The notes under the pieces are model-generated. The model was not told where the DNA came from. It saw only the letters and a program-made list of their open reading frames with translations, and ran no database searches. Positions 1,269 to 18,775 of a DNA stretch of 19,616 nucleotides are shown piece by piece (positions within the stretch are counted from its first letter, which is position 1; the number at the start of each line of letters is the position of its first letter). The DNA lies in NCBI GenBank assembly GCA_037969075.1, contig JBBKWS010000199.1, positions 1-19,616 on the forward strand, given 5' to 3'. The translations under genes and the position numbers were made by a program. The DNA comes from Bdellovibrionales bacterium. GTDB taxonomy: Bacteria; Bdellovibrionota; Bdellovibrionia; Bdellovibrionales; UBA840.

Positions 1269-2552
1269 CTAAGATTGTATTACTGAATTTTTCTTGAGAA
1301 CAAGATACATGAAAAGATTAAAAATACCTAAGAGTAGAAAAATCTCAGGGATTTTGATTTGAAATTTTAATAGCCCCATAACCAATAGAGAACTAATCAC
1401 CATAAAGAGTGCATTTAAAATATTATTTCCTGCAATCACTCTAGACAAGTGAGAAGCATCACACCACTTTTGGATTAAAGCATAGAGAGGAACTATATAA
1501 ATCCCACCCGAAGCGGCAAACAACACCATAGAAATCAATATAAACCAGTTTTTAGGAACCGACAAAAACTGAGAGACTGTATATAAGTGCATAGGCATAG
1601 CAGCATCTTTTGGACTTAAAAAATACAAAATCACTGCAAATATAGACATCCCTGCAAGACCAACAGGAACCAATCTTCCATTTACTTCATTCTTAGAGAG
1701 CTTTTCACACAAAAAAGAACCTAGGCCAATACCAACAGAAAAGCAGGCTAAAAATAGATTTACGACGTACTCATTTCCAAAAAGGTATTCTTTTCCATAA
1801 GAGGGAAAGAGTGAAAGGTAGCTCGCCCCAATAAACCAAAACCAAGAAATCCCGACTACTGACAAATACACATTTCTCTTAGATTTTATAAATGTAATAA
1901 CCTTATAGGTTTCTGAAAACACATTGTAATTGATTTTTTGTTTTGTAGCCTTGGATGGAATGTTTTGAATCTTTAATGACGACAGCCAACCAAAGATCGC
2001 AAATAAGATAATACCAAAGCAAACTATATATTCCCCGTATTCTGGGTAAGCTATAGCTCCACCACCTAAAATTGTCCCGAACAAAATGGCTAAAAAAGTT
2101 CCCGCCCCTATCAGAGCATTTCCAGCTATTAACTCTGACTCTGGTAAAATCTGCGGAACAATAGAATACTTTACAGGACCAAAAATAGCCGACTGAAATC
2201 CCATTAAAAACAAAACAAATAATAAAAAGTATATTTTCCCACTTAAAAAGCCAATTACACCCAATGACATTACTATGATTTCAAATAATTTTACCCAGCG
2301 AATCAGTTTTGATTTTTCCATTTGATCTGCAATTTGCCCAGCGGTAGCTGAAAATAAGAAAAAAGGCAGAATAAAAATCCCTGCACTCATAGTTACTAGT
2401 ATACTAGCAGGAAGATCAACGGCAGCAGCTGCTTTAAATGTAATTAGGATTACCAGCGCATTTTTAAAAAAATTATCGTTAAAAGCCCCAAAAAATTGTG
2501 TCCAAAAAAATGGGGAAAAATTTTTAGCTGTTAAAAGCTTAAGAGATTTCAT
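1269..2552 (-). CDS. MFS transporter, LplT / Aas-associated lysophospholipid transporter-like
   Basis: 427 aa with about 12 hydrophobic segments. Motifs [57 protein letters not shown] and [16 protein letters not shown] match this family. The start overlaps the fumC stop (ATGA). Confidence 0.85.
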
Positions 2553-3943
2553 GAACCAATAGGTCCAATCATACTCTCTGGTTTTACAAATTTATCAAAA
2601 TCCTCCGCAGACAGAAGACCTAACTTTACCGCTTCTTCTTTTAATGTAGTTCCATTTTGATAAGCCGTTTTTGCAATCTTTGCTGCGTTATCGTAACCAA
2701 TATGAGGGTTAAGCGCTGTTACAAGCATCAATGAATTATCTAAATGCTTTTTAATAACTGGTAAATTTGGTTCAATGCCATCGATGCAATGCAAAGTAAA
2801 ACTCTCGCTTGCATCTGCAAGCAATCGAATCGAGTTCAAAACATTAAAAACAATGACTGGCTTAAATACATTCAATTCAAAGTGACCATTAGATCCAGCC
2901 ACTCCAACAGCAACATCATTTCCTAAAACTTGCGCTGCAACCATTGTTATAGCTTCACACTGTGTAGGGTTTACTTTACCTGGCATAATAGAAGACCCTG
3001 GCTCATTTGCTGGCAATATCAATTCACCAAACCCTGATCTGGGTCCACTGCCAAGCAATCTAACATCATTTGCAATTTTCATTAATGAACATGCTAACAC
3101 ACGTAGGGCTCCACTGACTTCAACAAGTGCGTCGTGACTAGCTAGAGCTTCAAATTTATTTTCGGCAGTTATAAACGGAAGGTTTGTTTCTTTAGCTATC
3201 GCTTTCGCGGCAAGCACAGCAAAATCCTTATGGGTATTAAGTCCCGTCCCAACAGCGGTCCCGCCCAGTGCCAATTCATAAGCATAGGGAAGTGTGTTCT
3301 TTATTCGATTAATCCCATGGCGAATCTGAGTGGCATAACCTGAAAACTCTTGCCCTAAAGTAAGAGGCGTCGCATCCATTAAATGTGTTCTACCAATTTT
3401 AACAATGGATTTCATAGATTTTGATTTAGCTTCTAATGAAGAGGCTAATTTATCTAACATTGGAAGTAAGCGTCTATGAATTTCAGACACTACTGCAATA
3501 TGCATAGCTGTCGGAAACGTATCGTTCGAAGATTGACCTTTATTTACATCATCGTTTGGATGAACGGGCTCTTTACTACCCATTTTTCCCCCAGCAATCT
3601 CAATCGCTCGATTTGAAATTACTTCGTTTGCGTTCATATTAGTTTGGGTTCCACTTCCCGTTTGCCAAACAACCAATGGAAAATGCGCATCTAGTTTGCC
3701 GGCAATCACTTCGTCTGCAGCCTCTATAATTAATTTAGCTTTTTTTTCATCTAATAATTTTAAATCTCTATTAGTAAGTGCCGCCGCTTTTTTTAAGATA
3801 CCAAGGGCTCTGATCATTTCTCTGGGAAAACGATCACCACCAATTTTGAAGTTCTCAATCGATCTTTGCGTCTGTGCACCCCAATACATATCAGCTGGTA
3901 CATTAACCTCACCCATAGTGTCTTTTTCAATTCGAAACGACAT
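2549..3943 (-). CDS. fumC: Fumarate hydratase class II
   Basis: Motifs [49 protein letters not shown] and the signature [11 protein letters not shown]. Start moved from 4006 to the ATG at 3943 (MSFRIEK, 464 aa) because GGAGG lies just upstream and family similarity begins there. Confidence 0.97.
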
Positions 3944-4052
3944 GAAACCTCCAAGTTCTTCAAATCTAGATGAAGCTAGAGTAGCTATGTTTTGGAGGGC
4001 TTTCAAAATATTTTATTAGTATAAAGCTTAACGCAAGGCACCCTAGTGCATT

Positions 4053-5030
4053 CTAGAATGTATCGTCTTCTTTATAACCCTTCTCGGTGAGTTGTGAAAC
4101 AATTTCTCTAATTGTTCCTATAGAGATGGGACTATTATAAGCTTTTAACAATGAATCTAATTGTTCAGGACTTTTGACTCCAACTAGAGCTGTATCTAAA
4201 AAATCTTTCCATTGCAGAGAAAACCAAAGGGCAAATTGCTGTAAGCTATAGCCTCTCGGCTCTAATAAATTTTGCAACGATTGAACAAGCTCAAATTTTT
4301 TAGTCTTATTTTGCGATTTCCACCAAGGAGCCCACGACCTAGCGTCACTTGTATCAAACTTGCGAGACTCAGTTACCCTGCCCGTAAGTATCCCCTTATC
4401 AAAAGTACCATAGCCCATTCTGTAAATGGTGCCAGCCTTTCCAAAGCCCCCCATGCGCCAATAGGACTCGTTCCATGTAAATAAATTCCAGTTGTCTTGA
4501 AGAGCATCAATACGGCATATGCTAGATGCTTTCTTAAAGTCATCCTCATTAGTATTACATAAACCAATAAAACGAATTTTGCCTTGTTCTTTTGCCTTTA
4601 TTAAAACTTCTATAGCAGGCCTGATATCGTGTCTATCATCAGGCCAATGAATCATATATAAATCGATATAATCAGACTGTAGGTCTTTTAAACTTTGCGT
4701 GAGCATTTTAGCAATCACATCGGGATGATTGTTTTTATCTACGCGTTTCGTATCATTCCAAGTAACGCCGGCTTTAGAAACAATAAATACATCTTCACGT
4801 CTTGATCCAAATGCCTTACCAATTCGTTTTTCAGACTCACCAAATCCATATATTGGAGCTGTGTCAAACACGCGGATCCCATTATCATACGACAAATGTA
4901 GTAATTTAATGGCGTCAGTCTCGGCTATAGTGCCAAAGCCGTAGCCCCCACCCTCACCACTTATAGAAGCCGCGCCAAAACCAATAGGAAAATCAGGAAA
5001 CCCAACCATAACCAATGAATAACACGACAA
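4053..5030 (-). CDS. Aldo/keto reductase
   Basis: Motifs VFDTAPIYGFGESE, IVSKAG, SLKDLQSDYIDLYMIHWPD, GKIRFIG and KGILTGR; the Asp/Tyr/Lys/His tetrad residues are present. Start is uncertain (TTG 5030 or ATG 5009). Confidence 0.92.
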   Translation of the reverse strand: MSCYSLVMVGFPDFPIGFGAASISGEGGGYGFGTIAETDAIKLLHLSYDNGIRVFDTAPIYGFGESEKRIGKAFGSRREDVFIVSKAGVTWNDTKRVDKNNHPDVIAKMLTQSLKDLQSDYIDLYMIHWPDDRHDIRPAIEVLIKAKEQGKIRFIGLCNTNEDDFKKASSICRIDALQDNWNLFTWNESYWRMGGFGKAGTIYRMGYGTFDKGILTGRVTESRKFDTSDARSWAPWWKSQNKTKKFELVQSLQNLLEPRGYSLQQFALWFSLQWKDFLDTALVGVKSPEQLDSLLKAYNSPISIGTIREIVSQLTEKGYKEDDTF

Positions 5031-5079: not shown

Positions 5080-6081
5080 ATGCAAGTTCTATGTTTTGCT
5101 CACAGATTAGAAGCACTGGCTTTTTTTGACTATTCTCAATGTCAAAATCTTAGGCCGAATGTATTTAAATCCGAGGATTTTTACATCTTGATTACTAATG
5201 AGGGAATGCAGGCAGCAACCGAAAGTTTAACTGAGTTTTTGGCCCTAACTCTCGAAATTACTAGTGTAATTAATTTAGGCGCAGCCGCAGGAAACCTAAA
5301 CACTTTAAATATAAATCAAGTCTATCCCGTTAGAACACTGTATCGTCAAAAAGCAGATACAAGTATGGAGTTCACCTCATTTACTACAAAAAATGTAGAG
5401 GCAAATAGCGATATCATCAGCGCGGAAAGCAGAATTCAATCAGAAACTGAGTCTGAAAAACTTTTTTCATTTGCGCAGATCATTGACAGAGAGGCTTGGG
5501 CACTAGCATCTGTCAGTAAGAGATTTAAAAAAGATTTTTATTGCTTTAAATATATTAGTGACGATGCCACCCAAAAAGCCTGCTCGCAAGTTAGAGATAT
5601 AGCGGATAAAATTTCAAAGAGTTTATTAGAAACTTATTTAAGCTTTCAGCCAAACACTAAGACAATAAAGCAAATAGATTTGCCTGATGGCTATCATTTT
5701 ACCTTTACACAAAAAAATGACTTCGAAAAACTTTTGCAAAAGATATCTTTACAAAAAAACATTGCACCTGAAAATATTTTAACTGCCCTACCTGCATTTG
5801 ATGCTAAAAAACCAAAAGATCGCACAAAGTTATTACTAGAATTTCTTTTTGAACAACTAGATCCTTTTACGCACAAAATTCGCAATCAATTAAACCAACT
5901 AACATCACCATACCAAAATGAAAGCCTAAAGATAACTTATGATAAAACATTAGAAAGTGATGAGCTTGAATTACATCTAAAATTTTCTACACCTGAAGAA
6001 TTAAAAGCTATGATAGAGAACTTAAAAGATTTTCCTTATACATCAATACAAGAGCTCTTACGAGGCAATGATGTGGAGTAA
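5080..6081 (+). CDS. Nucleoside phosphorylase / MTA-SAH nucleosidase-fold protein with an unassigned C-terminal extension of about 140 aa
   Basis: Motifs fall in MTAN order: CFAHRLEA (GAMEEE-like), ITNEGMQAA (GIGKVNAA-like), VINLGAAAG (IINTGSAGG-like), IIDREAWALASV (VEMEATAIAHV-like) and FKYISDDA (VRAISDVA-like). Aligned by eye. Confidence 0.75.
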   Translation: MQVLCFAHRLEALAFFDYSQCQNLRPNVFKSEDFYILITNEGMQAATESLTEFLALTLEITSVINLGAAAGNLNTLNINQVYPVRTLYRQKADTSMEFTSFTTKNVEANSDIISAESRIQSETESEKLFSFAQIIDREAWALASVSKRFKKDFYCFKYISDDATQKACSQVRDIADKISKSLLETYLSFQPNTKTIKQIDLPDGYHFTFTQKNDFEKLLQKISLQKNIAPENILTALPAFDAKKPKDRTKLLLEFLFEQLDPFTHKIRNQLNQLTSPYQNESLKITYDKTLESDELELHLKFSTPEELKAMIENLKDFPYTSIQELLRGNDVE

Positions 6082-7072
6082 AATACTAATTGAAAATAAA
6101 CTTAAGGATCACCCGAGAGCCATAGAGGTTTTAAAACGATTCAGTAATAGCCCCACTGATTACATCGATTCTTATGAAAACTACTTTCAAAAGGTAAAAA
6201 AGCCCTACCTACAAAAAAGAGAGAATTTACAACTAATATTAGCAGAGAAAAAAGGTAGTCTTGTAAAACTCACTCCTGCTGCTTACGGCGTAGGAAAAGA
6301 AGCTCACTACTATTTTATACATGCTTATAACTGCATTTATGAATGCCAATACTGCTATTTGCAAGGCTACTTTCAATCACCTGACATAGTCCTTTTTATC
6401 AATCACGAAGATATTATTGAAGAGATCAAACAAATACAGGCCGAGTCTGGTGATACTGTGTGGTTTCATGCCGGAGAATTTAGTGATTCACTTGCGTTAA
6501 GTCATATCACGCAAGAGTGGCCATTATATTGGGACGCATTTAACGTTATGCCCAATGCATTCTTAGAATTAAGAACCAAATCTGCTAATATAAAAGCAAT
6601 AGAAAATTTAGAGCCCTTAGAAAATATTATTATTAGTTTTTCGCTGTCCTCTGAATCTGCCATTAAGGCCTATGACACAAAGACAGCCCCACTAAAAGCT
6701 CGTCTTCGCGCCATGCAAAAACTGATTCAAAAAGGTTTTAAAGTGGGTATCCACTTAGATCCAATCATTGCCACCGAAACTGTGGTTTCGGATTATAAAA
6801 AGCTAATTACTAACTTTAGAGAATACTTTGAACCAAAAGATATTTCATATATCTCTTTAGGAGTGATTCGCTTTACAAAAGATGTGTATCAGCAAGTACA
6901 AAAAAATTACCCTCAATCTGGCATGCTAGGAGGACCTTTTTATACTTCATTTGATAATAAGGTTCGTTACTCGCGCCCATTACGCCTTCACCTGCTAAAG
7001 TCCATTGAGACCTATTTGCACAGTGAAGGTTACAGCAAAGAGCAAGTTTACCTTTGCATGGAAAGAGACTGA
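6068..7072 (+). CDS. Spore photoproduct lyase (SplB)-family radical SAM protein
   Basis: CxxxCxxC motif NCIYECQYCYLQG (C89/C93/C96) with the flanking tyrosines of SPL, plus ELRTKS, GIHLDPII, KVRYSRPLR and a C-terminal YLCME. The start overlaps the upstream gene by 14 nt (second ATG at 6071 is an alternative). Confidence 0.88.
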   Translation: MMWSKILIENKLKDHPRAIEVLKRFSNSPTDYIDSYENYFQKVKKPYLQKRENLQLILAEKKGSLVKLTPAAYGVGKEAHYYFIHAYNCIYECQYCYLQGYFQSPDIVLFINHEDIIEEIKQIQAESGDTVWFHAGEFSDSLALSHITQEWPLYWDAFNVMPNAFLELRTKSANIKAIENLEPLENIIISFSLSSESAIKAYDTKTAPLKARLRAMQKLIQKGFKVGIHLDPIIATETVVSDYKKLITNFREYFEPKDISYISLGVIRFTKDVYQQVQKNYPQSGMLGGPFYTSFDNKVRYSRPLRLHLLKSIETYLHSEGYSKEQVYLCMERD

Positions 7073-8283
7073 AGCTTTTTTATTCTTTCAATCACAGGCG
7101 GATGAGTATACTCAAAAAACACCTTTAGCGGGTGGGGATTTAAGTTAGACAAGCTATCCACACTTAATTTTTTAAGCGCTTCTGCTAGTGCTCCTGGCTC
7201 ACCATACGTTTTTACCGCGTAAGCGTCAGCCTCAAACTCATATTTTCTACTCATATAAAGAGAAACAAGAGAAGTAAGATCCGATATAGGGCTATAGATT
7301 AAGCTAAAAAATACCAGACTAGCATAGACCGTAATATTTTCCATATTAAAAGCCGCGAATACGCTTTCATTTTTCATAAAAAGACCCATTAAAAAAAACA
7401 TAATTCCACTTGAGAAAATAGACACAACTAGATGTCTATGGATATGCTTCATTTTAAAGTGACCAATCTCATGAGCGAGTACCGCCACTAGTTCATTGAT
7501 ACTATGTTTTGAAATCAAGGTGTCAAATAATACAACCCTGCGAAGTTTACCAAAACCCGTAAAAAATGCATTTGCTTTTGATGATCTCTTAGAACCATCC
7601 ATCGAAAAAATGCCCTGCAATTGAAAGTTTTGTTTTTTTGCATACTCATTAATTGCGGATTTAAGCTCTCCATCTGGTAGGGGAATGAATTTATTAAATA
7701 GTGGCATGATAACGACAGGCGCGACAAAAGTAATAAAAATTTGAAAGGCAACAACAGCAACCCAACAATACAACCAAGCCATAGAGCCACTAGATTCAAA
7801 AAACCAAAGAATCAGTGACAATAGTATTCCTCCCAAAATGCTACCCAATGCCAGACCTAAAATTTGATCTTTAATAAAGGTTGCTAGAGTTTGCTTATTA
7901 AAGCCAAATTTCTCTTCGATTACAAATGTATGATAGTACGAAAAAGGAAGTGCTAAAGCCATTGCAGCTAATGCAAAAGCCGCCATAAACAGTAGACCTT
8001 GTAGAATAGGCAGATCCGTCATACTTTGCACCCAATTATCTAATACAGGAAATCCACCCAATACAATAAAGGTGATTAATAAGAATGTAGAAATACTTGA
8101 TTGCACTAAGCCAAATCGAGTATTGGTTTTTAAATATTCTTGTGACTTTTTATATTTCTCTTGATCATAAAGACCTTTAAACTCGTCTGGGATCTCGGCA
8201 GAAACTTTTTTTAAATTTAAAGTTTCAATGGTGATTTCTAATACGTATGAAAACAAAATAATGGCGATTACAAAATATAACAT
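7048..8283 (-). CDS. M48 family membrane zinc metalloprotease (Ste24 / CAAX protease 1-like)
   Basis: Multiple TM helices and motifs IEEKFGFNK, DGSKRSSKANAFFTGFGK, VLAHEIGH (HExxH), SRKYEFEAD and YTHPPVIERI. Confidence 0.95.
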   Translation of the reverse strand: MLYFVIAIILFSYVLEITIETLNLKKVSAEIPDEFKGLYDQEKYKKSQEYLKTNTRFGLVQSSISTFLLITFIVLGGFPVLDNWVQSMTDLPILQGLLFMAAFALAAMALALPFSYYHTFVIEEKFGFNKQTLATFIKDQILGLALGSILGGILLSLILWFFESSGSMAWLYCWVAVVAFQIFITFVAPVVIMPLFNKFIPLPDGELKSAINEYAKKQNFQLQGIFSMDGSKRSSKANAFFTGFGKLRRVVLFDTLISKHSINELVAVLAHEIGHFKMKHIHRHLVVSIFSSGIMFFLMGLFMKNESVFAAFNMENITVYASLVFFSLIYSPISDLTSLVSLYMSRKYEFEADAYAVKTYGEPGALAEALKKLSVDSLSNLNPHPLKVFFEYTHPPVIERIKKLQSLSMQR

Positions 8284-9816
8284 TTATTCCTCACTCGATT
8301 CGACTAACATATAACTTTGTACGTAAAATTGCTTTTCTTCAAGCGAGACTTGCAATTCATCTAAATAAAATGAATTTTTAAAGCTCTTTTGTAGGTATTC
8401 ACCCTCTTTAGCTGACACAGCATAGCTAAAAACCTCACTTTGCTGTGATTTGAAAAGCAAAATATAAGGTGCATCAACCTCTAGCAATGCTTTCAAAGTA
8501 TCACTAGACTTAAATAGCCTAACTCGATCTGCCCACTTATACCTTCTTCTTAAATTGAGGCTAGTGTACGTTTTCTCAAAAAATCCTTGCGGTTGGTTAA
8601 TAAATACTTCAGCTCGCACAGTATCTAGATCAAAATATTTCTCAAGCCTTGCACCAAGGTAATCACGATTCCCTCTATCGGAATCTAAAAAATTGCTTAT
8701 GCTTTCAATATCTAGTTGCTCAAAAGATTTCGGAATAACAGATATAATTCCCTCTTTTACTTGATCGTTATAATAACCTAAGCTAGGCGTCACGCTATAA
8801 CCTGTAGCAAATAATTCTTCAACTTTAGGCAGCTCATATTCATTTAATAAGGACTGATATGAATTAATAAAAGCATTTATATCTTTAGTGGTCGCAAATT
8901 CTTCGAAATGCCTTAAAAATATTTCTCGAACTTCTACGTCCATATTTTCTGCAAGTTCAAGTAGGCGCGATCCTAAATCCATAACCACCCAGTCATGTCT
9001 TTTTAAATTGAAATTTTTAAACTTTGCACCTTCTACAAGACTAGCCGCTACCTCTCTAACTCTGGTGATTAGATCTTCAATTTCAGCAACATGTAGGGCT
9101 GGCGATACCACTTTGTTCATGTACAAACTGTATGATTCAGAATTAAGCCTACCTAGTTGTGATAAACTATAGTGGTAAGCATCATCCGCTAAATCTAAAG
9201 AAAAGAGTGGCGCAGGCATTAATGATTGTTTTTTTATGGACTCTTCAATGGCAGCTAACTGTGTATTTAAAAAATCCCAGCCTAAGTCTAATAATTCTAA
9301 TCTCTTATCTGTAGATATAGCTGCCATTTTATCACAAGCCGCACAATATGACATAGGTGATTGGCTAAAAGCCTTGTGCTTCTCACATTTAAAACAATCC
9401 ATCTCATCCCAAAAATAATAAACTGTGACCGGAAGCACTTCGGCAGCCCATGCCGCTAGCGTGTGATACAAAAGACCTTGCTTGGGCTTCCATGCGTAAC
9501 CGACTAACTTATGGCAAAGCTCATGAGCCCCCCACTTAGAAGACTGGCCTGGATGAAAATTACACACCACTGAATCATGTCTAAACGACTGATATTTTAA
9601 CTCCGATAATACCCCCGCCTGCCAGTGCACCTCACCTTGTGCCGCTTGCAAATTAGGATCAAGCCAACCCTCAGGTACTGGCACGGGCCAACGGTACTCA
9701 TAATGGGCAAATAAGAATTCGTTGGAAGCCGCTAATGAGAATATACGCTTTGCCACCGAAGACCTATTATAGTCCCTAGGGTCTGCGCCCATGCTTATAA
9801 TTTGCTGATCATTCAT
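8284..9816 (-). CDS. Uncharacterised 510-aa protein with an HExxH motif and a Cys/His cluster
   Basis: Long ORF. H98-E-L-C-H102 followed by E126, and C141-x2-C144-x2-H147-x10-C158-x2-C161. Its stop directly abuts the M48 start (TAA-ATG). No family confidently recognised. Confidence 0.85.
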   Translation of the reverse strand: MNDQQIISMGADPRDYNRSSVAKRIFSLAASNEFLFAHYEYRWPVPVPEGWLDPNLQAAQGEVHWQAGVLSELKYQSFRHDSVVCNFHPGQSSKWGAHELCHKLVGYAWKPKQGLLYHTLAAWAAEVLPVTVYYFWDEMDCFKCEKHKAFSQSPMSYCAACDKMAAISTDKRLELLDLGWDFLNTQLAAIEESIKKQSLMPAPLFSLDLADDAYHYSLSQLGRLNSESYSLYMNKVVSPALHVAEIEDLITRVREVAASLVEGAKFKNFNLKRHDWVVMDLGSRLLELAENMDVEVREIFLRHFEEFATTKDINAFINSYQSLLNEYELPKVEELFATGYSVTPSLGYYNDQVKEGIISVIPKSFEQLDIESISNFLDSDRGNRDYLGARLEKYFDLDTVRAEVFINQPQGFFEKTYTSLNLRRRYKWADRVRLFKSSDTLKALLEVDAPYILLFKSQQSEVFSYAVSAKEGEYLQKSFKNSFYLDELQVSLEEKQFYVQSYMLVESSEE

Positions 9817-9917: not shown

Positions 9918-10985
9918 ATGGCTAAAATACTAATAAAGTTAGGTTCCTCAGCAATCACCGATAATAACGGAATCTCTAAAGAAAAGTGTAAAAAAGTACT
10001 CGCTGATGTTGTCAGATTAAAAGAACAGAAGCATCAAATTATTATTGTTAGTTCCGGGGCCATTGCCACCGGAAAGCATTATATAAAAAACTACAATAAG
10101 AGCTTGATACACTCACAGCAGGCAGCCTCTTCGATTGGCCAACCACTACTTATGAATGAATACACGCATTTTTTTAATGCTAGTGGCATTGCGTGTGCAC
10201 AAATACTTTTGACTCATGAAGATTTCAAACGCAAGGCATCCTATTTTAACTGTCAGAAAACTCTACTTCATCTCTTAGATAATAATATTATTCCAATTAT
10301 TAACGAAAACGACGCAGTAAGTTTTGCAGAGATTACATTGGGGGACAATGATCAACTAGCAGGTCTCTTAGCCCTCATGTTAAACGTAGATACTTGCTTA
10401 TTCTTAACTGAGGCCGATGGCCTTTTAGATAAAGAGAGTAATACGATTCGGGAAATTTCTAGCGAAGAAAATTTTTCTTTTATTAAGTATCATAAAAAAA
10501 CTGCATCTGGCACTGGCGGCATACAACACAAATTAGAGGCTATTAGAAAAATCACAGATGCCGGAATTAGAGTGTGTCTAGGTTCATATACATCAAGTGA
10601 TCCTCTTATGCGTCTAATAGATGGCACAAGCGGGAGTCAGTTTGTGGCCACCCATGAGAAAAAGAGCTCTCGAGCGCAAAAAATCAGAAGCAGTGCAAAG
10701 GTTGGCTCTTATATTAAAATAGATGATGGAGCCGCAGGGGCACTAATAAAAAATGCCTCTCTGCTTCCATCTGGAGTTACGCAAGTTGTGGGTAATTTTC
10801 AGCGCGGTGATAGCATAGCCATAAGAAACCAAAAAGCAGTTATTGCCTACGGTGAAGTTGAATATTCGAGTAAAGAAATCTTAAAAATTAAAGGGAAAAA
10901 ATCAAATGATATCGCAGGTGTTTTAGGTTACCATCTAACGGATGTAATCATTCACAAGGATAATTTAGTAATGGTGAAAAAATGA
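9918..10985 (+). CDS. proB: Glutamate 5-kinase
   Basis: Motifs IKLGSS, IVSSGAIATG, QAASSIGQ, AQILLT, PIINENDAV, GDNDQLA and GTGG, with a C-terminal PUA domain (IDDGA...SLLPSGV...GNFQRGD...IHKDNLV). Confidence 0.96.
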   Translation: MAKILIKLGSSAITDNNGISKEKCKKVLADVVRLKEQKHQIIIVSSGAIATGKHYIKNYNKSLIHSQQAASSIGQPLLMNEYTHFFNASGIACAQILLTHEDFKRKASYFNCQKTLLHLLDNNIIPIINENDAVSFAEITLGDNDQLAGLLALMLNVDTCLFLTEADGLLDKESNTIREISSEENFSFIKYHKKTASGTGGIQHKLEAIRKITDAGIRVCLGSYTSSDPLMRLIDGTSGSQFVATHEKKSSRAQKIRSSAKVGSYIKIDDGAAGALIKNASLLPSGVTQVVGNFQRGDSIAIRNQKAVIAYGEVEYSSKEILKIKGKKSNDIAGVLGYHLTDVIIHKDNLVMVKK

Positions 10986-12217
10986 GTGTAACAAAAATTG
11001 CTGAAGCAGCCAAACTTTGTAGCCGAGAGCTTGTCGCCACTACCAGTGAAAATAGAAAACTTGCCTTACTAGCCATAGCTGAGGGACTAAAAAATCAAAA
11101 AAATGAAATCCTTATTATGAACCAAAAGGATTTATCAAGTGCCAATAAATTAAAACTAAGCGATGCCATAATAGATCGCCTAAAACTAACATCTGACAGA
11201 GTCGATGTAATGATTGATGCAGTGATTGCCATAGCAAAGCAAGACGAGGTTGTATTTCAAACCCTTGAAAAGATAACTCGAGATGATGGATTAATTATTA
11301 AAAAACAAAGCATCCCGTTAGGTGTAATAGGTATTATCTTTGAAAGTCGCCCAAATGTTATTATTGATTGCGCTGCTCTTTGCATTAAATCTGCAAATGT
11401 CGCCATTTTAAAAGGCGGGAAAGAAGCACAGCACAGCAACCAAATACTTGTACAAATTGTCCGCACGGCAATCAGACAGCATATACCCGTAGATACAATT
11501 CAACTTTTAAATACCAAAGAAGAAGCACAGGATTTATTAACACAAAAGAATCTAGTAGATGTTATTATCCCTAGAGGTGGAGAAAAACTAATTGAATATG
11601 TGATGGAACACTCTAAGGTTCCGGTGATTGCGCACTTCAAAGGCTTATGTCACCTATTTATAGATACTTCTGCTAATGAAGATGATGCTTATGAGGTAAT
11701 TATGAATGCCAAGTGTCAAAGACCCGGTGTTTGCAATGCAGTTGAAACATTAATATTACACCGTGACCTATCAAATAATTTTCTAAAAAAACTCAATGAA
11801 GGATTCACTGAAAATAAAATTGAAATGCGAGTTAGTCCATCCCTACGTGAGTTCTTTCCTTCATCAAAACCTGCTCACCCAGATGATTGGTCGACTGAAT
11901 ATTTAGATAAAATTATTTCGATCATTCAGGTAAAAGATATTTACGAGGCCATAGCCCATATTCAAACTTTTGGCACCAGACATACAGAGGCAATATGTAG
12001 CGAAAATAAACAAAACATAGAACTATTTTTAAATTCGGTAGACGCCTCATGTGTGATGGTAAATGCGTCGACCAGATTCAACGATGGCGGTCAGTTAGGA
12101 TTAGGAGCTGAGATTGGAATCTCAACCACAAAGCTCCATGCTTACGGCCCAATGGGAGCCAAACAACTAACCACATCGCGTTTTGTTGTTGTTGGTCACG
12201 GTCATATTAGATCTTAA
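10982..12217 (+). CDS. proA: Gamma-glutamyl phosphate reductase
   Basis: Motifs PLGVIGIIFESRPNV, LKGGKEA, IPRGGEKLI, RPGVCNAVETL and VNASTRFNDGGQLGLGAEIGISTTKLHAYGPMG; 4-nt overlap with proB. Confidence 0.97.
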   Translation: MSVTKIAEAAKLCSRELVATTSENRKLALLAIAEGLKNQKNEILIMNQKDLSSANKLKLSDAIIDRLKLTSDRVDVMIDAVIAIAKQDEVVFQTLEKITRDDGLIIKKQSIPLGVIGIIFESRPNVIIDCAALCIKSANVAILKGGKEAQHSNQILVQIVRTAIRQHIPVDTIQLLNTKEEAQDLLTQKNLVDVIIPRGGEKLIEYVMEHSKVPVIAHFKGLCHLFIDTSANEDDAYEVIMNAKCQRPGVCNAVETLILHRDLSNNFLKKLNEGFTENKIEMRVSPSLREFFPSSKPAHPDDWSTEYLDKIISIIQVKDIYEAIAHIQTFGTRHTEAICSENKQNIELFLNSVDASCVMVNASTRFNDGGQLGLGAEIGISTTKLHAYGPMGAKQLTTSRFVVVGHGHIRS

Positions 12218-12227
12218 CCCTATCCCC

Positions 12228-12256
12228 TTGCACTAAACTATAATTTTAGCTATTCT
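12228..12256 (+). promoter_or_regulatory. Putative sigma-70 promoter of the NYN gene
   Basis: TTGCAC(12228-33)-N17-TATTCT(12251-56), followed by an AAGGA Shine-Dalgarno-like site before ATG 12280. Confidence 0.55.
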
Positions 12257-12279
12257 CTATAAAAAGGAATTCATACATT

Positions 12280-12789
12280 ATGGATAAAACAATACGAATT
12301 GATCAAAGTGTCGCAATACTTGTAGACGGCAATAATATCGAAATCAGCATTCACGAAGTTACAAAAAATGATGCGGCCATGCTAAACTTTGACACCCTTA
12401 TCCCTAGATTACTCGACAATAGATCCTTAAATCGAATGGTCTATTTTAGAGAAGGTAAGCATATTTCTAATAAATTAGCTGAAAGACTTCATAACTTATT
12501 TCATGGCTCTGTTGTACCCTGCCATAAATCAGCTGATATTCCTTTAACGATTAAGGCGATGCAGTTAGCTAATAAAATTGACACCATTATAATTATGTCT
12601 GGTGACTCTGATTATGTAGAACTCGTACGGCATTTAAAGTTTGAAGGTGTAAGAGTTGAAATTGCGGCTGTAGAGACTACAACGGCTGCTATCTTAAGAG
12701 ATGAGGCTGATCACTTTCATGCATTAACAGACGAAGACTGGTTTATTTATACAAACAGTAAGCGTGGAACAGGAAACCGTAAGCGCTAA
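12280..12789 (+). CDS. NYN domain (LabA/DUF88, PIN-like) predicted nuclease
   Basis: Acidic motifs AILVDGNNI, KSADIPL and IIMSGDSDYVELV, plus GVRVEI and LRDEADHF. Confidence 0.92.
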   Translation: MDKTIRIDQSVAILVDGNNIEISIHEVTKNDAAMLNFDTLIPRLLDNRSLNRMVYFREGKHISNKLAERLHNLFHGSVVPCHKSADIPLTIKAMQLANKIDTIIIMSGDSDYVELVRHLKFEGVRVEIAAVETTTAAILRDEADHFHALTDEDWFIYTNSKRGTGNRKR

Positions 12790-14178: not shown

Positions 14179-14832
14179 TTAGTCTTTAATAATTAAACGG
14201 TCCGACAATTCATTTTTATCATCATGTTGTCTTGGAAAGTGATCTGCTAATATATCGCCGCACTTTAAAATTGCATTAGCAAATGCAGCTTCAATTTCTT
14301 TTGTTTTACAACCAGATACCAATAGATCGCAAACTTCACTCCATGTACTAGCTGGCACTTTATCAGCTATTGCTTTATCTGCTAAAACTACGGCACGTCT
14401 TTCTAATAGTGATACAAATAGCAAAATCCCAGTAGCATCTTTAGTATTTCTTACGCCTGCCTCAAAAAATTCTACTTCGGCGCGCATTTCTACTTGGCTA
14501 GCCTGATCGGATGAGTTTGTTACTAGCCTTCTGATACAATCAAACCTTGAAAGCATAGCAGTCAAACCAACTGCTAAGACTAAATTAACTATGCACCAAA
14601 AATAATACATATCTAGATAAGCCATCTGCAGTGTCAGCAGATCAATAGCCAGAATGATAATAATTAAAATGCTCGCTACAATTAGTGGTACATGACCTAT
14701 AGTCGATGATTTTCTGACAAGGATCGGTATTATCTCGCCAGATGTTCTAAGCTCGGTTTTTTTAATGGCAGTGATAATAATATCTACTTTTTCTGGACGA
14801 ATATAATTTTTAGCCCAAACTGGAATCATCAT
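14179..14832 (-). CDS. TPM-domain (DUF477-like) membrane protein
   Basis: Motifs ELRTSGEI, two TM helices, TGILLFVSLLERRAVVLADKAI and HFPRQHDDKNELSD. Start moved from 14838 to ATG 14832, which overlaps the upstream stop (TAATG). Confidence 0.9.
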   Translation of the reverse strand: MMIPVWAKNYIRPEKVDIIITAIKKTELRTSGEIIPILVRKSSTIGHVPLIVASILIIIILAIDLLTLQMAYLDMYYFWCIVNLVLAVGLTAMLSRFDCIRRLVTNSSDQASQVEMRAEVEFFEAGVRNTKDATGILLFVSLLERRAVVLADKAIADKVPASTWSEVCDLLVSGCKTKEIEAAFANAILKCGDILADHFPRQHDDKNELSDRLIIKD

Positions 14833-15599
14833 TACCAACCTCCTGAGGCACCACCGCCGCTAAAACCGCCGCCGCCACCGCCGAATCCACCACTACTGCG
14901 ACCACCAAAACCACCGCCACCCCTACTACTACTGGCGCCCAATAGTAATGCCGTAAACAGAGCACTACGTGCGCCGCTGCCTCGACCTCTACCACCACCG
15001 CCAAATAAAAGCATTAGTATGAAGATAATAAAAAAGAAACCCGTAATGCCGTTTCCTTTGGGACGCTTCTGGTAGCTGTGATTATTTTTTAAAGAAAAAA
15101 TTGCTTCAACATCAATATTTGGATTCGATGCCTGTGCGATCTGAAACACCCCTAGTAAAATGCCTTCAGAAATATTACCTGCTTTAAACAGTGGGGTCAT
15201 TGCCTCCGAAATAATTCTCTTCGAGTACGCATCTGTCAGATCACCCTCTACGCCTTGGCCAACCTCGATACGCATTTGCCTTTCATCTCTAGAAATTAAA
15301 AGTAGAACTCCGTTATCTTTTTTTGCTGCTCCTAACTTCCACTTATCAACAACTTGAATGGATGCCTGCTCTATGGTTAATCCCTCTAAACTTTTAACAG
15401 TCAGTACAGCGATTTGCGTTCCACCTTGTTCTTTTAGTTTTCGTAAACTTGCATTCAGTTGATTTTTTACACCCAACGAAATCATACCAGCATAATCATT
15501 TACTGGGTTCTTAAGCGAAGGGACTACAAAATCATTCGCATATAAAGCACTACTAGCTAAAATAATTAGTGTGATAAAGAGACGTGATAACAAAAACAT
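14832..15599 (-). CDS. TPM-domain protein (YgcG-like) with Gly-rich tail
   Basis: Signal peptide, VNDYAGMI, WKLGAAKKDNGVLLLI, RIEVGQGVEGDLTD, one TM helix and the tail GGFGGGGGGFSGGGASGGW. Confidence 0.93.
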   Translation of the reverse strand: MFLLSRLFITLIILASSALYANDFVVPSLKNPVNDYAGMISLGVKNQLNASLRKLKEQGGTQIAVLTVKSLEGLTIEQASIQVVDKWKLGAAKKDNGVLLLISRDERQMRIEVGQGVEGDLTDAYSKRIISEAMTPLFKAGNISEGILLGVFQIAQASNPNIDVEAIFSLKNNHSYQKRPKGNGITGFFFIIFILMLLFGGGGRGRGSGARSALFTALLLGASSSRGGGGFGGRSSGGFGGGGGGFSGGGASGGW

Positions 15600-16183
15600 T
15601 AAAAATTAACTTCAGGTGCTTTTTCTACGTTTTCACCGGCGTCTACTGTCCATTGTGGCATCTTTTCGTGTTTATAAAATAAACTGTTTGTCCAACTTTG
15701 AGGAGGCACAGTAACTAAATTATTAAACATCTTAATAGACTCAATATAACGATTTCTCGCAACAGTGATTCTATTCTCTGTTCCCTCTAATTGCGCTTGC
15801 AGCTCGCGAAAGTTTCGATCTGCCTTTAAATCAGGGTATTTTTCAACAACAACCATCAATTTTGATAGTGCCTGTGTTAAGCTACCTTGTGCGGCTTGAA
15901 AATTTTTAATTTGATCTGCATTTAATTTACTAGCATCGATACTTGTACTGGTTGCCTTAGCTCTTGCTTCAACCACAGCCTGCAAGGTTTGACTTTCATG
16001 TTTTGCATAGCCTTTAACAGTACTGACTAAACTAGGTATTAAGTCTGCTCGACGCTTATATTGATTAGTAACTTCTGCCATTGATGCTTCCACATCATTT
16101 TTACTTTGCGGAATTGATTGGACGCCGCAGCCTATGTTTAAAATCACCCCTAAAAGTAAAATAATTCGAATTAGATTTCGCAT
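15599..16183 (-). CDS. lemA: LemA family protein (probable lipoprotein)
   Basis: Motifs QYKRRADLIPSLV, VKGYAKHE and VEKYPDLKA..NFRELQAQLEGTENRITVAR. Lipobox-like NIGC; AAGGAG RBS at 16193-16198. Forms the usual lemA-TPM-TPM operon. Confidence 0.96.
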   Translation of the reverse strand: MRNLIRIILLLGVILNIGCGVQSIPQSKNDVEASMAEVTNQYKRRADLIPSLVSTVKGYAKHESQTLQAVVEARAKATSTSIDASKLNADQIKNFQAAQGSLTQALSKLMVVVEKYPDLKADRNFRELQAQLEGTENRITVARNRYIESIKMFNNLVTVPPQSWTNSLFYKHEKMPQWTVDAGENVEKAPEVNF

Positions 16184-16646: not shown

Positions 16647-17579
16647 GTGGGGATGTTTTTTGTATTTTTGCTATTTAATTGGGGACTTTCATTTTCGGCT
16701 AAAGTTAGCTTAGATGCTCACGTACATTATCAGACCGCAGGAATTCTAAATCCAATGACTGCCGACGCAAGATTTGTTACACATGATGACACAAAAGAAT
16801 ATTACCTTAAAATTTTATCTCAGCCTTATTTAGACCGCTTTTTTTTATTGTCTGAGGCTTACATGGCCTCGAACTTAAAAGATGCTAACAATAAAAACTC
16901 TGAGGTCTACAATCTAACTCAAGGTGAGACCAGAGCCATACCGGTATGCGGACTTACTACTAAATATGTTTTTTACAAGCCTGCTCTATCACATTGCCTG
17001 AATCTTGGTTTTTCAGGTTTTAAAATGCACCTATCCTATGAGGAAACTTTTTTAGAGAATGACACCTTAAATAAAATTTATGATGCCTTAACTCAAGTCC
17101 CAAAAGATAAAACAGTCTTTTTACTGAACCACTACTATTACTCTACAAAAGACCCTATACGAAATAAAAAGCAGACAATGAATCTTCTGGCTTTGAGCCA
17201 AGAGTTTCCTAATGTGCAGTTCATCATCGCCCATGCTGCCCTTGGAAACCCGCAAATGCTTGAGGATATTGCTAATTATTACTTGCAGAATCCAAGCATC
17301 CTAAGAAATATATATCTAGAGACATCCAGTTTTATCTCATCATTTCATAGGACAGATAGTGATTTTATTAATTATTATGGCTACAGCTTGTCATACTACA
17401 GAGAACTTTTTCAAAAGTTTGGCATTGAAAGAGTTTTATATGGAAGTGATAGTTTTATCAACAACCCCATTGGTTCTAAAGAAATAGATTTTATCCTAAA
17501 TAGTAATTTCTCTTTTTACGAACAGGATCGTATTTTAGAAAAAAACGGGCAAGATTTTTTGCAATTATTAAGTCTTTAA
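16647..17579 (+). CDS. Amidohydrolase-superfamily (Amidohydro_2-like) metallohydrolase with predicted signal peptide
   Basis: TIM-barrel metal-site motifs DAHVH, GFKMH, LLNH, IIAHAA, IYLETS and RVLYGSD; hydrophobic N-terminus ending SFSA. Start is GTG 16647 or ATG 16653. Confidence 0.88.
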   Translation: MGMFFVFLLFNWGLSFSAKVSLDAHVHYQTAGILNPMTADARFVTHDDTKEYYLKILSQPYLDRFFLLSEAYMASNLKDANNKNSEVYNLTQGETRAIPVCGLTTKYVFYKPALSHCLNLGFSGFKMHLSYEETFLENDTLNKIYDALTQVPKDKTVFLLNHYYYSTKDPIRNKKQTMNLLALSQEFPNVQFIIAHAALGNPQMLEDIANYYLQNPSILRNIYLETSSFISSFHRTDSDFINYYGYSLSYYRELFQKFGIERVLYGSDSFINNPIGSKEIDFILNSNFSFYEQDRILEKNGQDFLQLLSL

Positions 17580-18775
17580 GACTGTCTTTCCATGGTAGCC
17601 ACAAAAAAACCATCGTAGCCTTCTACGTTAGGTAGAAATGTCTTTTGACCAAGAAGTTTAAAATCTGAGTTTGCTGCCAAAAATTGATCAACTTGCTTTC
17701 CATTTTCAGAGGGCAAAATACTGCAAGTTGAATACACCAAGCGACCACCAATTTTAGTCATTGAAGAGTACCTAGATAAAATATCTTTTTGTAGTTCTAA
17801 AGTATTTAAATATTCTTCTTTTGTAAGTTTCCACTTTGTATCTGGATTACGCTTTAACACTCCAAGACCGCTACAAGGCACATCTAAAACAACCACATCC
17901 GCTGTTTTTTCAAGGCGTTTAATTACTTTAGTAGTATCAATGATTTTAGTTTCAATGATATTAGCCCCAGCTCGTCTTGCTCTAATTTTTAACTGCTCTA
18001 ACTTTTTTTCATGAACATCTAAAGAGATAATTTTACCTTTATTTTGCATGAGACTTGCCATGTGTAAACTTTTTCCACCAGCACCGGCGCATGCATCTAC
18101 CACGCGCATTCCTGGCTTTACTCCTGCCGCATAAGCAACCGATTGTGACGCCACATCTTGTACTTCAAAACCACCGGCTTGAAAAACCTTAGTTCTAAAT
18201 ACATTCTTTTTAGAAGGCACTATCATTGCGTCTGGTGCATCTTCTATTGGGAGAACATCTATCTCTTCGCTCGTTAGCTCTTTAATAACTTGATCACGAC
18301 TCATTTTTAACAAATTCACTCGCAAGTACAATTTAGCTCGCTGATTCAATGCCGTGATAATTTCATCCCACGCAGGACCTAGCTCTTCGAAAGCAAGCTC
18401 GTCCATCCAATCAGGCAAGGACTCTTTTTCTGCTCGGCTTAGTGGCTTATGCATATTTGTCTTAAGTACATTAATATGAGTTTTTAAAAAATGGGTGGAT
18501 TCTTTTTTACTTAAATACCACCACACACCAAATAGGTTCAACAACACGTCATCGTAATCACTTTCTTCTTCGCCCGAAACAAGCCAAAGATAACGCCACC
18601 ATCTAACCATTTCATAAACAGCTTCGGCTACAAACTTTCTATCTCTGGAGCCCCAACGACGATTATTCTTAAATGTTCTCTCTATTACTTTATCCGCATA
18701 ATAGCCATCAACAAAAATGCTCCTTAGAGCTTCTGTGATAGCTACGACTAAATGGGTATGAATTTTTTGTGTCAT
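17576..18775 (-). CDS. RsmB/NOL1/NOP2/Sun family RNA m5C methyltransferase
   Basis: Motifs WGSRDRKF, FEVQDVASQ, VDACAGAGGKSLH, LDVPCSGLGVLKRNPD and LVYSTCS (both catalytic Cys), plus DGFF. Confidence 0.95.
   Translation of the reverse strand: MTQKIHTHLVVAITEALRSIFVDGYYADKVIERTFKNNRRWGSRDRKFVAEAVYEMVRWWRYLWLVSGEEESDYDDVLLNLFGVWWYLSKKESTHFLKTHINVLKTNMHKPLSRAEKESLPDWMDELAFEELGPAWDEIITALNQRAKLYLRVNLLKMSRDQVIKELTSEEIDVLPIEDAPDAMIVPSKKNVFRTKVFQAGGFEVQDVASQSVAYAAGVKPGMRVVDACAGAGGKSLHMASLMQNKGKIISLDVHEKKLEQLKIRARRAGANIIETKIIDTTKVIKRLEKTADVVVLDVPCSGLGVLKRNPDTKWKLTKEEYLNTLELQKDILSRYSSMTKIGGRLVYSTCSILPSENGKQVDQFLAANSDFKLLGQKTFLPNVEGYDGFFVATMERQS

Follow-up and report, generated by a model that had tools for sequence, protein, structure and literature searches.

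Annotations as 'spore photoproduct lyase' (SPL) are common in organisms that do not form spores, and have been read as signs of UV repair, LUCA included. An SPL-related gene of Nautilia, located beside a short-chain dehydrogenase, was read as DNA repair in the relevant part of one report (PMC2628731), and a LUCA study points out that members of the family are also present in taxa lacking spores or exposure to UV (PMC11383801). For SplB itself, structures from G. thermodenitrificans (4FHC-4FHG, PMC3467042) are available for comparison. Radical SAM enzymes and nucleosidases act together in the futalosine pathway (MqnE and a nucleosidase) and in the hopanoid pathway, where, according to PMC13459092, HpnH adds an adenosyl group, HpnG removes the adenine, the ribose is opened, possibly non-enzymatically, and HpnI glycosylates the product. 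A further point of comparison is provided by the ParB-CTPase fold fusion proteins of a recent preprint (bioRxiv 10.1101/2025.10.10.680097), the main text of which mentions neither SPL, nor photoproduct, nor nucleosidase.

The locus studied here lies in a contig of 19,616 nucleotides from a Bdellovibrionales bacterium (the window, which denotes this whole stretch of DNA). It consists of two overlapping genes, ORF1 and ORF2, with both flanking genes on the opposite strand. The features are as follows.

4053-5030, minus strand: aldo-keto reductase, divergent from ORF1, likely start at the ATG near 5009
5080-6081, plus strand: ORF1, 333 aa
5080-5664, plus strand: ORF1 N-terminal domain, residues 1-195, predicted MTAN-fold nucleosidase
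5671-6081, plus strand: ORF1 C-terminal adaptor domain, residues 198-333, recognized by hhalign homology and predicted ORF2 binding
6068-7072, plus strand: ORF2, 334 aa counted from the first of two tandem ATGs, predicted class A SPL-fold radical SAM enzyme with the CxxxCxxC motif kept and the hairpin tip deleted
7048-8283, strand opposite to ORF2: M48 peptidase, convergent with ORF2, 25-nt overlap

The coordinates bore out an initial annotation of the DNA, which had described two overlapping genes with opposite-strand flanks; the overlap is 14 nt, or 11 nt if ORF2 begins at the second ATG. Its proposal of a closed two-gene unit was rejected, because the divergent reductase belongs to the conserved block, as seen in 52/80 loci. 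Among named homologues, those closest to ORF1 and ORF2 are found in Bdellovibrionales genomes, in which their locus tags are consecutive; a Bdellovibrionota diderm is therefore the most likely host. A promoter scan gave an outcome at chance level. The window genome (assembly 90% complete) contains one SPL-family gene and one photolyase. The initial annotation had noted no spore genes in the window, and SASP had no match in the whole genome either, at that completeness. For the window's barrel ORF, only a weak PagL match was obtained (E 6e-4, below cutoff).

Several other genes of the window were examined. A 510-aa ORF (8284-9816, minus strand) without a Pfam or NCBIfam match contains an H-E-x-x-H-like motif and two Cys pairs, spotted by eye. 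It abuts the M48 peptidase in the window and, as homologues of 56% and 41%, in two other loci (L031 and L035, respectively). It may be an unnamed zinc protein that pairs with the peptidase. A three-gene run (14179-16183, minus strand) resembles LemA and two TPM-domain proteins, which we take to be ordinary, and adjoins a SelO-family gene. The stretches 1269-4006, 9918-12789 and 16647-18775 contain an MFS transporter, fumarase, proB/proA and an rRNA methyltransferase, presumably housekeeping genes, together with NYN-domain and amidohydrolase genes.

ORF2 matched the SPL family PF20903 above cutoff (E 3e-24). It scored 99.7 bits against TIGR04070 (cutoff 400), for which SplB from Bacillus velezensis, used as a control, scored 516.9 bits, and 66.6 bits against TIGR03886, the spore photoproduct lyase family protein model (cutoff 437.55). 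The structure model of ORF2 (pLDDT 88.8) resembled the SP lyase 4FHC with a TM score of 0.80, compared with 0.47 for the next-ranked structure. Residues of ORF2, numbered from the second ATG, were mapped by sequence alignment to the annotated B. velezensis SplB rather than by superposed coordinates, with the residue roles as given in the part of PMC3467042 that describes them. ORF2 keeps the radical SAM CxxxCxxC motif (C88, C92, C95) as well as Y94, Y96, S138, D139, K170 and S191, and R267, K297 and Y327 correspond to SplB R273, K309 and Y339. In SplB numbering, the shared positions are Y96, Y98, S142, D143, K174, S195, R273, K309 and Y339.

The residues for lesion repair differ. The position of the SplB H-donor cysteine (C140/C141) is occupied by Glu (E136 in ORF2) in 93/93 class A rows, the class to which ORF2 belongs, and the class A alignment contains no Cys near the clostridial H-donor position, in the loop around S76. 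By alignment, two lesion-binding positions are lost in this class (R193 to Ser/Thr, E268 to Ser), whereas the phosphate-binding R273 and K309 positions and the lesion-binding Y339 position are kept. A six-residue deletion at the tip of the beta-hairpin removes R304/Y305. Y72, H79 and the C-terminal C329 are invariant in the class, and residues 43-50 form a conserved basic patch. Identification of ORF2 as an ordinary SplB was rejected on the basis of the sub-cutoff score and the lost repair residues; as judged from alignment and model, ORF2 is an SP-lyase-fold radical SAM protein lacking the repair residues of SplB. It further differs from SplB in having a predicted protein partner, and in being encoded by a host without a SASP match. 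The retention of the phosphate-binding positions, of the Y98 and Y339 positions and of the basic patch suggests that its target is of a nucleotide type.

The SPL fold and the retained phosphate-binding residues would also be consistent with DNA repair, in which the complex mends SP or another lesion, the adaptor takes the place of the hairpin tip in recognition, and the C-terminal Cys or a tyrosine serves as H donor. SOS or UV induction has been reported for other 'SPL family' genes, which may or may not fall into the classes used here (PMC3323433, PMC12029717). We consider this explanation improbable, because ORF2 has lost two lesion-binding residues and has no cysteine at either of the known H-donor positions, and because the window genome has a photolyase and no SASP match.

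ORF1 had no Pfam match, and all its matches to NCBIfam nucleosidases were below cutoff, including 14.9 bits for the MTAN family TIGR01704 (cutoff 73.8) and 20.1 bits for PRK05584 (cutoff 169). In the structure model of ORF1 (pLDDT 93.6), residues 1-195 superpose on MTAN (6AYM) with Z 23.1 and an rmsd of 2.5 A over 191 aligned residues, and the Chlamydia protein CT263 (4QAQ) gave Z 21.6; MTANs and CT263 are the best structural matches. E11, E41, R118, D136, E138 and D161 are invariant in 93/93 rows, H8 is kept in 92/93 and R137 in 91/93. E138 and D161 align with the E-M-E and S-D motifs of MTAN, and E11 is taken by us to be MTAN E12 from its motif position and the MTAN numbering. ORF1 thus shares the fold and three catalytic acids with MTAN and CT263, and its N-terminal domain is likely a nucleosidase with the catalytic acids intact, as indicated by alignment and model.

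ORF1 differs from these proteins in having D-R-E in place of the MTAN E-M-E motif (91/93 rows), polar residues near the 5' pocket, and a fused adaptor; H8, E41, R118 and R137 are specific to its class. By score and E-M-E motif, both read from the sequence, it falls outside curated MTAN. MTAN has hydrophobic residues at three pocket positions that are His, Glu and Arg in ORF1, which argues for an adduct, rather than free 5'-deoxyadenosine, as the substrate. ORF1 is the only MTAN-like gene found in the window genome, with which a housekeeping role would fit.

These observations bear on a second explanation, the main rival to the one we prefer, in which ORF2 catalyses H-abstraction in a modification pathway shared with the GT2-family glycosyltransferase gene described below, consuming SAM stoichiometrically, while ORF1 only hydrolyses inhibitory 5'-deoxyadenosine and doubles as the MTA/SAH nucleosidase. 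This explanation is possible but on the unlikely side. The best structural matches of ORF1 and its being the sole MTAN-like match in the genome would be expected from it, as would the loss, in class A and the related class D, of the cysteines that let SPL recycle SAM. The polar or charged pocket positions of class A, with R118 and E41 invariant, argue against it.

The C-terminal part of ORF1 (residues 198-333) had no Pfam or PDB match, and no solved relative of this adaptor was found; the 37 adaptor members compared, which bear on a possible identity with the C-terminal dimerisation domain of ParB itself, have no shared Pfam or PDB match, and an Atlas search with the adaptor of a homologue returned only unnamed clusters. 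Comparison by hhalign with partner proteins that carry a ParB_N domain gave a probability of 97% (E 7e-11) over 122 columns, corresponding to ORF1 residues 201-319. The ParB_N domain itself is absent from ORF1, which has no Pfam match and is MTAN-fold in residues 1-195. The initial annotation had called ORF1 a nucleosidase-fold protein; the fold was confirmed, and covers only the first 60% of the sequence.

Modelling of the pair had been proposed in the same annotation as a check, and docking was predicted. ORF2 together with ORF1 residues 198-333 gave a binding prediction score of 0.79, compared with 0.01 for the best control; the mark set for this score is reached by 116/157 solved complexes and 2/215 mismatched pairs, a calibration that is rough here, as our own alignments were supplied. 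The runs agree in at least 93% of contacts, with a partner pLDDT of at least 87. On the ORF2 side, the predicted interface comprises residues 282-293 and 300-310, which flank the shortened hairpin on both sides. On the ORF1 side, it comprises residues 220-227, 260-267, 290-292 and 326-332, close to three conserved residues (P262, E292 and G329). The prediction supports binding of ORF2 by the ORF1 adaptor domain. Docking on both sides of the shortened hairpin is also what the DNA repair explanation would call for. The pair in this window brings two catalytic domains together in one predicted complex of ~670 residues, and offers a compact entry point to the system.

To describe the conservation of the pair, we used the best 80 of 219 confirmed relatives as a sample of GTDB loci, 9 of which are of the Calditrichota type. 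An ORF1 orthologue lies directly upstream of the ORF2 orthologue in 79/80 loci, the remaining locus being cut by a contig end. A class A enzyme is present in 88/401 Bdellovibrionota genomes, and the same 88 carry a full-length ORF1. The two genes are adjacent in 85 of these, split by contig breaks in two, and ~7 kb apart in one, with two other ORFs between them. Conservation of the pairing in other genomes, as the initial annotation had anticipated, is far beyond chance. The SPL-like branch as a whole, mostly single-copy, occurs in 180/401 Bdellovibrionota and 73/81 Calditrichota genomes. Outside these two phyla, the evidence consists of a single Fusobacterium record and a few gut contigs. No relatives turned up in viral scans, and the matches in a metagenome scan were for the most part near-copies belonging to a single gut lineage.

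The other classes of the branch have different partners. Class B enzymes are preceded by an adaptor gene in 14/15 loci first examined and 18/18 held-out loci; the last 130-150 residues of these partners are homologous to the ORF1 C-terminus, and many of the partners start with a ParB_N domain. Such partners, for which the ParB-CTPase fold fusion proteins (bioRxiv 10.1101/2025.10.10.680097) are the comparison, carry ParB_N together with the C-terminal adaptor that ORF1 also has, whereas ORF1 has a nucleosidase in place of ParB_N. In Calditrichota, classes were assigned from match starts. There, 9/9 class A and 22/24 class B genomes contain an adaptor gene, often distant from the enzyme; one was found in 0/40 other enzyme-bearing genomes, of which 14 were verified to be class C and a few have only fragments, and in 1/8 genomes without an enzyme match. 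In five class C genomes, a search for an adaptor gene gave nothing beyond two weak matches (E 0.009 and 0.05). Class C enzymes have a helical N-terminal extension, for which hhalign against the adaptor gave probabilities of 27% and 0.6%. In class D, represented by the Fusobacterium record and gut contigs, the enzyme either has a nucleosidase-fold partner or is itself part of a single-chain fusion, and an SDR gene comes next; the Fusobacterium record encodes nucleosidase and radical SAM enzyme fused in one chain, with SDR after it.

In an unrooted 42-row tree, in which the SplB branch is long, classes A and D group together with support 98/99, a topology that fits one replacement of ParB_N by the nucleosidase. 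Neither class has the CP..CC cysteines seen in B and C, a loss that would also agree with the clearance of 5'-deoxyadenosine as the only role of ORF1. The ParB_N domain of class B partners would favour DNA repair; class A has no ParB_N and class C no adaptor gene (0/40 in Calditrichota), which argues against that explanation and weakens models that need a DNA clamp. The initial annotation had taken the nucleosidase as the partner of the enzyme, and this had to be revised: across clades, the conserved partner is the C-terminal adaptor domain of ORF1.

Some features of these classes were recorded separately. Class B/C enzymes (L111-L135) have a C-P..C-C motif before the radical SAM motif and a C-terminal C-M-E, and the four cysteines could, judging from the motifs, serve as ligands of a second metal centre; of the four, class A retains just the last, and class D is without the C-terminal one. 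In many Calditrichota (L311, L315, L317, L322-L329), a ParB-like adaptor gene lies apart from the enzyme and upstream of one gene family, whose member in L315 is asparaginase-like. Of the records behind L140 and L141, the Fusobacterium 'plasmid' is 2.1 Mb and chromosome-like, and an unverified 'phage' contains bacterial metabolic genes and matches gut contigs.

A third explanation is that a housekeeping nucleosidase became fused by accident to the adjacent adaptor gene and has no functional tie to ORF2, with the reductase and GT2 genes as bystanders in inherited synteny. For the majority of class B and C genomes, nucleosidase and radical SAM gene are indeed not neighbours. We regard this explanation as very improbable, because class A has retained the fusion in two phyla and class D has it too, with three parts fused in Fusobacterium, and because the catalytic acids are invariant in 93/93 rows. 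The adjacency in 79/80 and 85/88 cases, the Fusobacterium fusion and the common branch of classes A and D support a functional tie of the nucleosidase to the enzyme.

In a 5-kb radius around the 80 loci, the reductase has orthologues in 52 cases, a protein of the GT2 family in 42, and a small 2OG-Fe(II)-like gene in 44; none of the three was found within this distance of the 9 Calditrichota loci (0/9). An aldo-keto reductase in L033 and a GT2 in L104 were rejected as paralogues (25-37% identical), so that the counts of 53 and 43 became 52 and 42 of 80, and an RmlD-like reductase after GT2 in L354 was excluded. D49, Y54, K79 and H121 of the divergent aldo-keto reductase are invariant. The 2OG-Fe(II)-oxygenase-like gene (L037:6040-6507 and 43 other loci) encodes 150-180 aa just downstream of the class A enzyme, and may represent a further tailoring step; no orthologue was found in the window genome (best 18 bits).

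The GT2 orthologue was surveyed in 301 genomes, taken as G000-G300. It occurs in 90/301, and 88/90 of these have an SPL-like gene; 170 genomes have neither. GT2 is missing from 41/129 SPL-like-positive genomes, and occurs in 2/172 SPL-negative genomes. Outside the largest family, it is present in 33/68 SPL-like-positive versus 2/166 SPL-like-negative genomes; related genomes are not independent samples, so that these figures, and those for the reductase, overstate the certainty of co-occurrence. The co-occurrence extends to class B and C genomes in which GT2 is unlinked to the enzyme (32/64). No GT2 orthologue was found in the window assembly or that of its closest relative, both of which are incomplete, whereas in both other genomes of the window's family a single block holds GT2, reductase, ORF1 and ORF2. 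GT2 is also missing in 2/5 Calditrichota tested. The tracking of GT2 with the enzyme, even when unlinked, argues against an accidental fusion with bystander genes, and a GT2 has no place in DNA repair.

The reductase orthologue was found in 67 genomes, 66/67 of which have an SPL-like gene, including 62/65 class A genomes, with a weaker copy in one further genome. Its occurrence is restricted to class A plus four genomes from the same family, and its position near the enzyme may be inherited synteny; this lineage restriction is also what an accidental fusion would predict. The two-gene module of the initial annotation had overlooked the reductase and GT2, both of which track with the pair.

Five class C genomes encode a nucleosidase of 190-206 aa without an adaptor, far from the enzyme. 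It lies at or near the reductase in 3/5 loci, two of which also have GT2, and in one complete Calditrichota class C genome a short nucleosidase abuts GT2 (L353). This association of the short nucleosidase with the reductase or GT2, even where the radical SAM gene is located elsewhere, argues against a role limited to clearing 5'-deoxyadenosine. Conversely, the generic short MTAN-like genes of relatives with class B enzymes or none (L172-L178, L182, L186, L187, L189), whose neighbours we take to be adenine phosphoribosyltransferase or methionine-salvage genes, would favour such a role. The class D nucleosidases and the short nucleosidases keep an ordinary D-M-E motif.

Two observations on GT2 are added here. 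Where it is unlinked to class B/C enzymes (L334-L345), it is often located beside SAM decarboxylase, spermidine synthase, SpoU methylase and QueF; this neighbourhood is a hint of RNA modification, or plain synteny. In a complete class A Calditrichota genome (L354-L355), the GT2 orthologue is in two frames, through a frameshift or a sequencing error.

We hypothesize that the system follows an HpnH-HpnG-reduction-HpnI-like logic on a non-hopanoid, probably nucleotide-type target, a tentative reading, argued by analogy, to which we give a little less than an even chance. ORF2 would transfer the 5'-deoxyadenosyl group from SAM to a target that is phosphorylated and of a nucleotide type. The ORF1 nucleosidase domain, docked via the adaptor, would then strip the adenine from the adduct, the aldo-keto reductase would reduce the freed ribose, and the co-inherited GT2 would add a sugar. 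The outcome would be a pathway building a sugar side chain from SAM. We infer the adenosyl transfer, the order of the steps, and the kind of target, which may be tRNA, DNA or a nucleotide-like cofactor. The proposed sequence of adenosylation, adenine removal, ribose reduction and glycosylation resembles hopanoid HpnH/HpnG/HpnI and futalosine MqnE with its nucleosidase, whereas ORF2 is built on another radical SAM scaffold and acts in a predicted, adaptor-mediated complex. Membership in either pathway was rejected, because squalene-hopene cyclase (PF13243) and MqnA/MqnD (PF02621) had no match in the window genome (90% complete), and the target would accordingly differ from those of the two pathways.

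A role for downstream sugar enzymes is suggested by the presence of GT2 in 88/129 SPL-like-positive genomes versus 2/172 others, and by the short nucleosidase beside the reductase or GT2. The hypothesis of adenosylation and glycosylation is weakened by the missing GT2 in the window and closest-relative assemblies, in 41/129 SPL-like-positive genomes and in 2/5 Calditrichota; by the lineage restriction of the reductase and its absence within 5 kb of 9/9 Calditrichota loci; by the ordinary D-M-E of class D and short nucleosidases; and by ORF1 being the sole MTAN-like gene found in the window genome. Much more certain than the chemistry is the architecture, in which an adaptor and a nucleosidase serve a non-SplB enzyme, and which we hold with high confidence.

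By the features tested, the system lies outside SplB, MTAN, Hpn and Mqn, and most likely works like HpnH/HpnG, an option the initial annotation had offered and which became our best reading. Its broader claim, of a dedicated radical SAM and N-glycosidase system distinct from ordinary SP repair, agrees with the conserved pairing, the confirmed fold, the predicted binding and the missing SPL repair residues. Its DNA-lesion reading lost ground, as ORF2 has neither the hairpin tip nor the fourth cysteine, and GT2 co-occurs genome-wide. A literature search, with supplements outside its range, found no description of the ORF1-ORF2 pair; the system is real and conserved, and apparently undescribed.

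In the SPL-like branch, the rebuilt active site, the dedicated adaptor and the downstream sugar enzymes point to a modification pathway; the window adds the nucleosidase-adaptor fusion, the predicted docking and the link to the reductase. In a more specific and rather doubtful version, the SPL-scaffold enzyme would adenosylate a tRNA or DNA base, the nucleosidase would strip the adenine, and the reductase and GT2 would leave a glycosylated C-linked deoxyribitol mark, as a widespread housekeeping pathway. If this were true, it would be a nucleic-acid modification built from the ribose of SAM, and the fusion in ORF1 would be what links the nucleosidase physically to the enzyme family.
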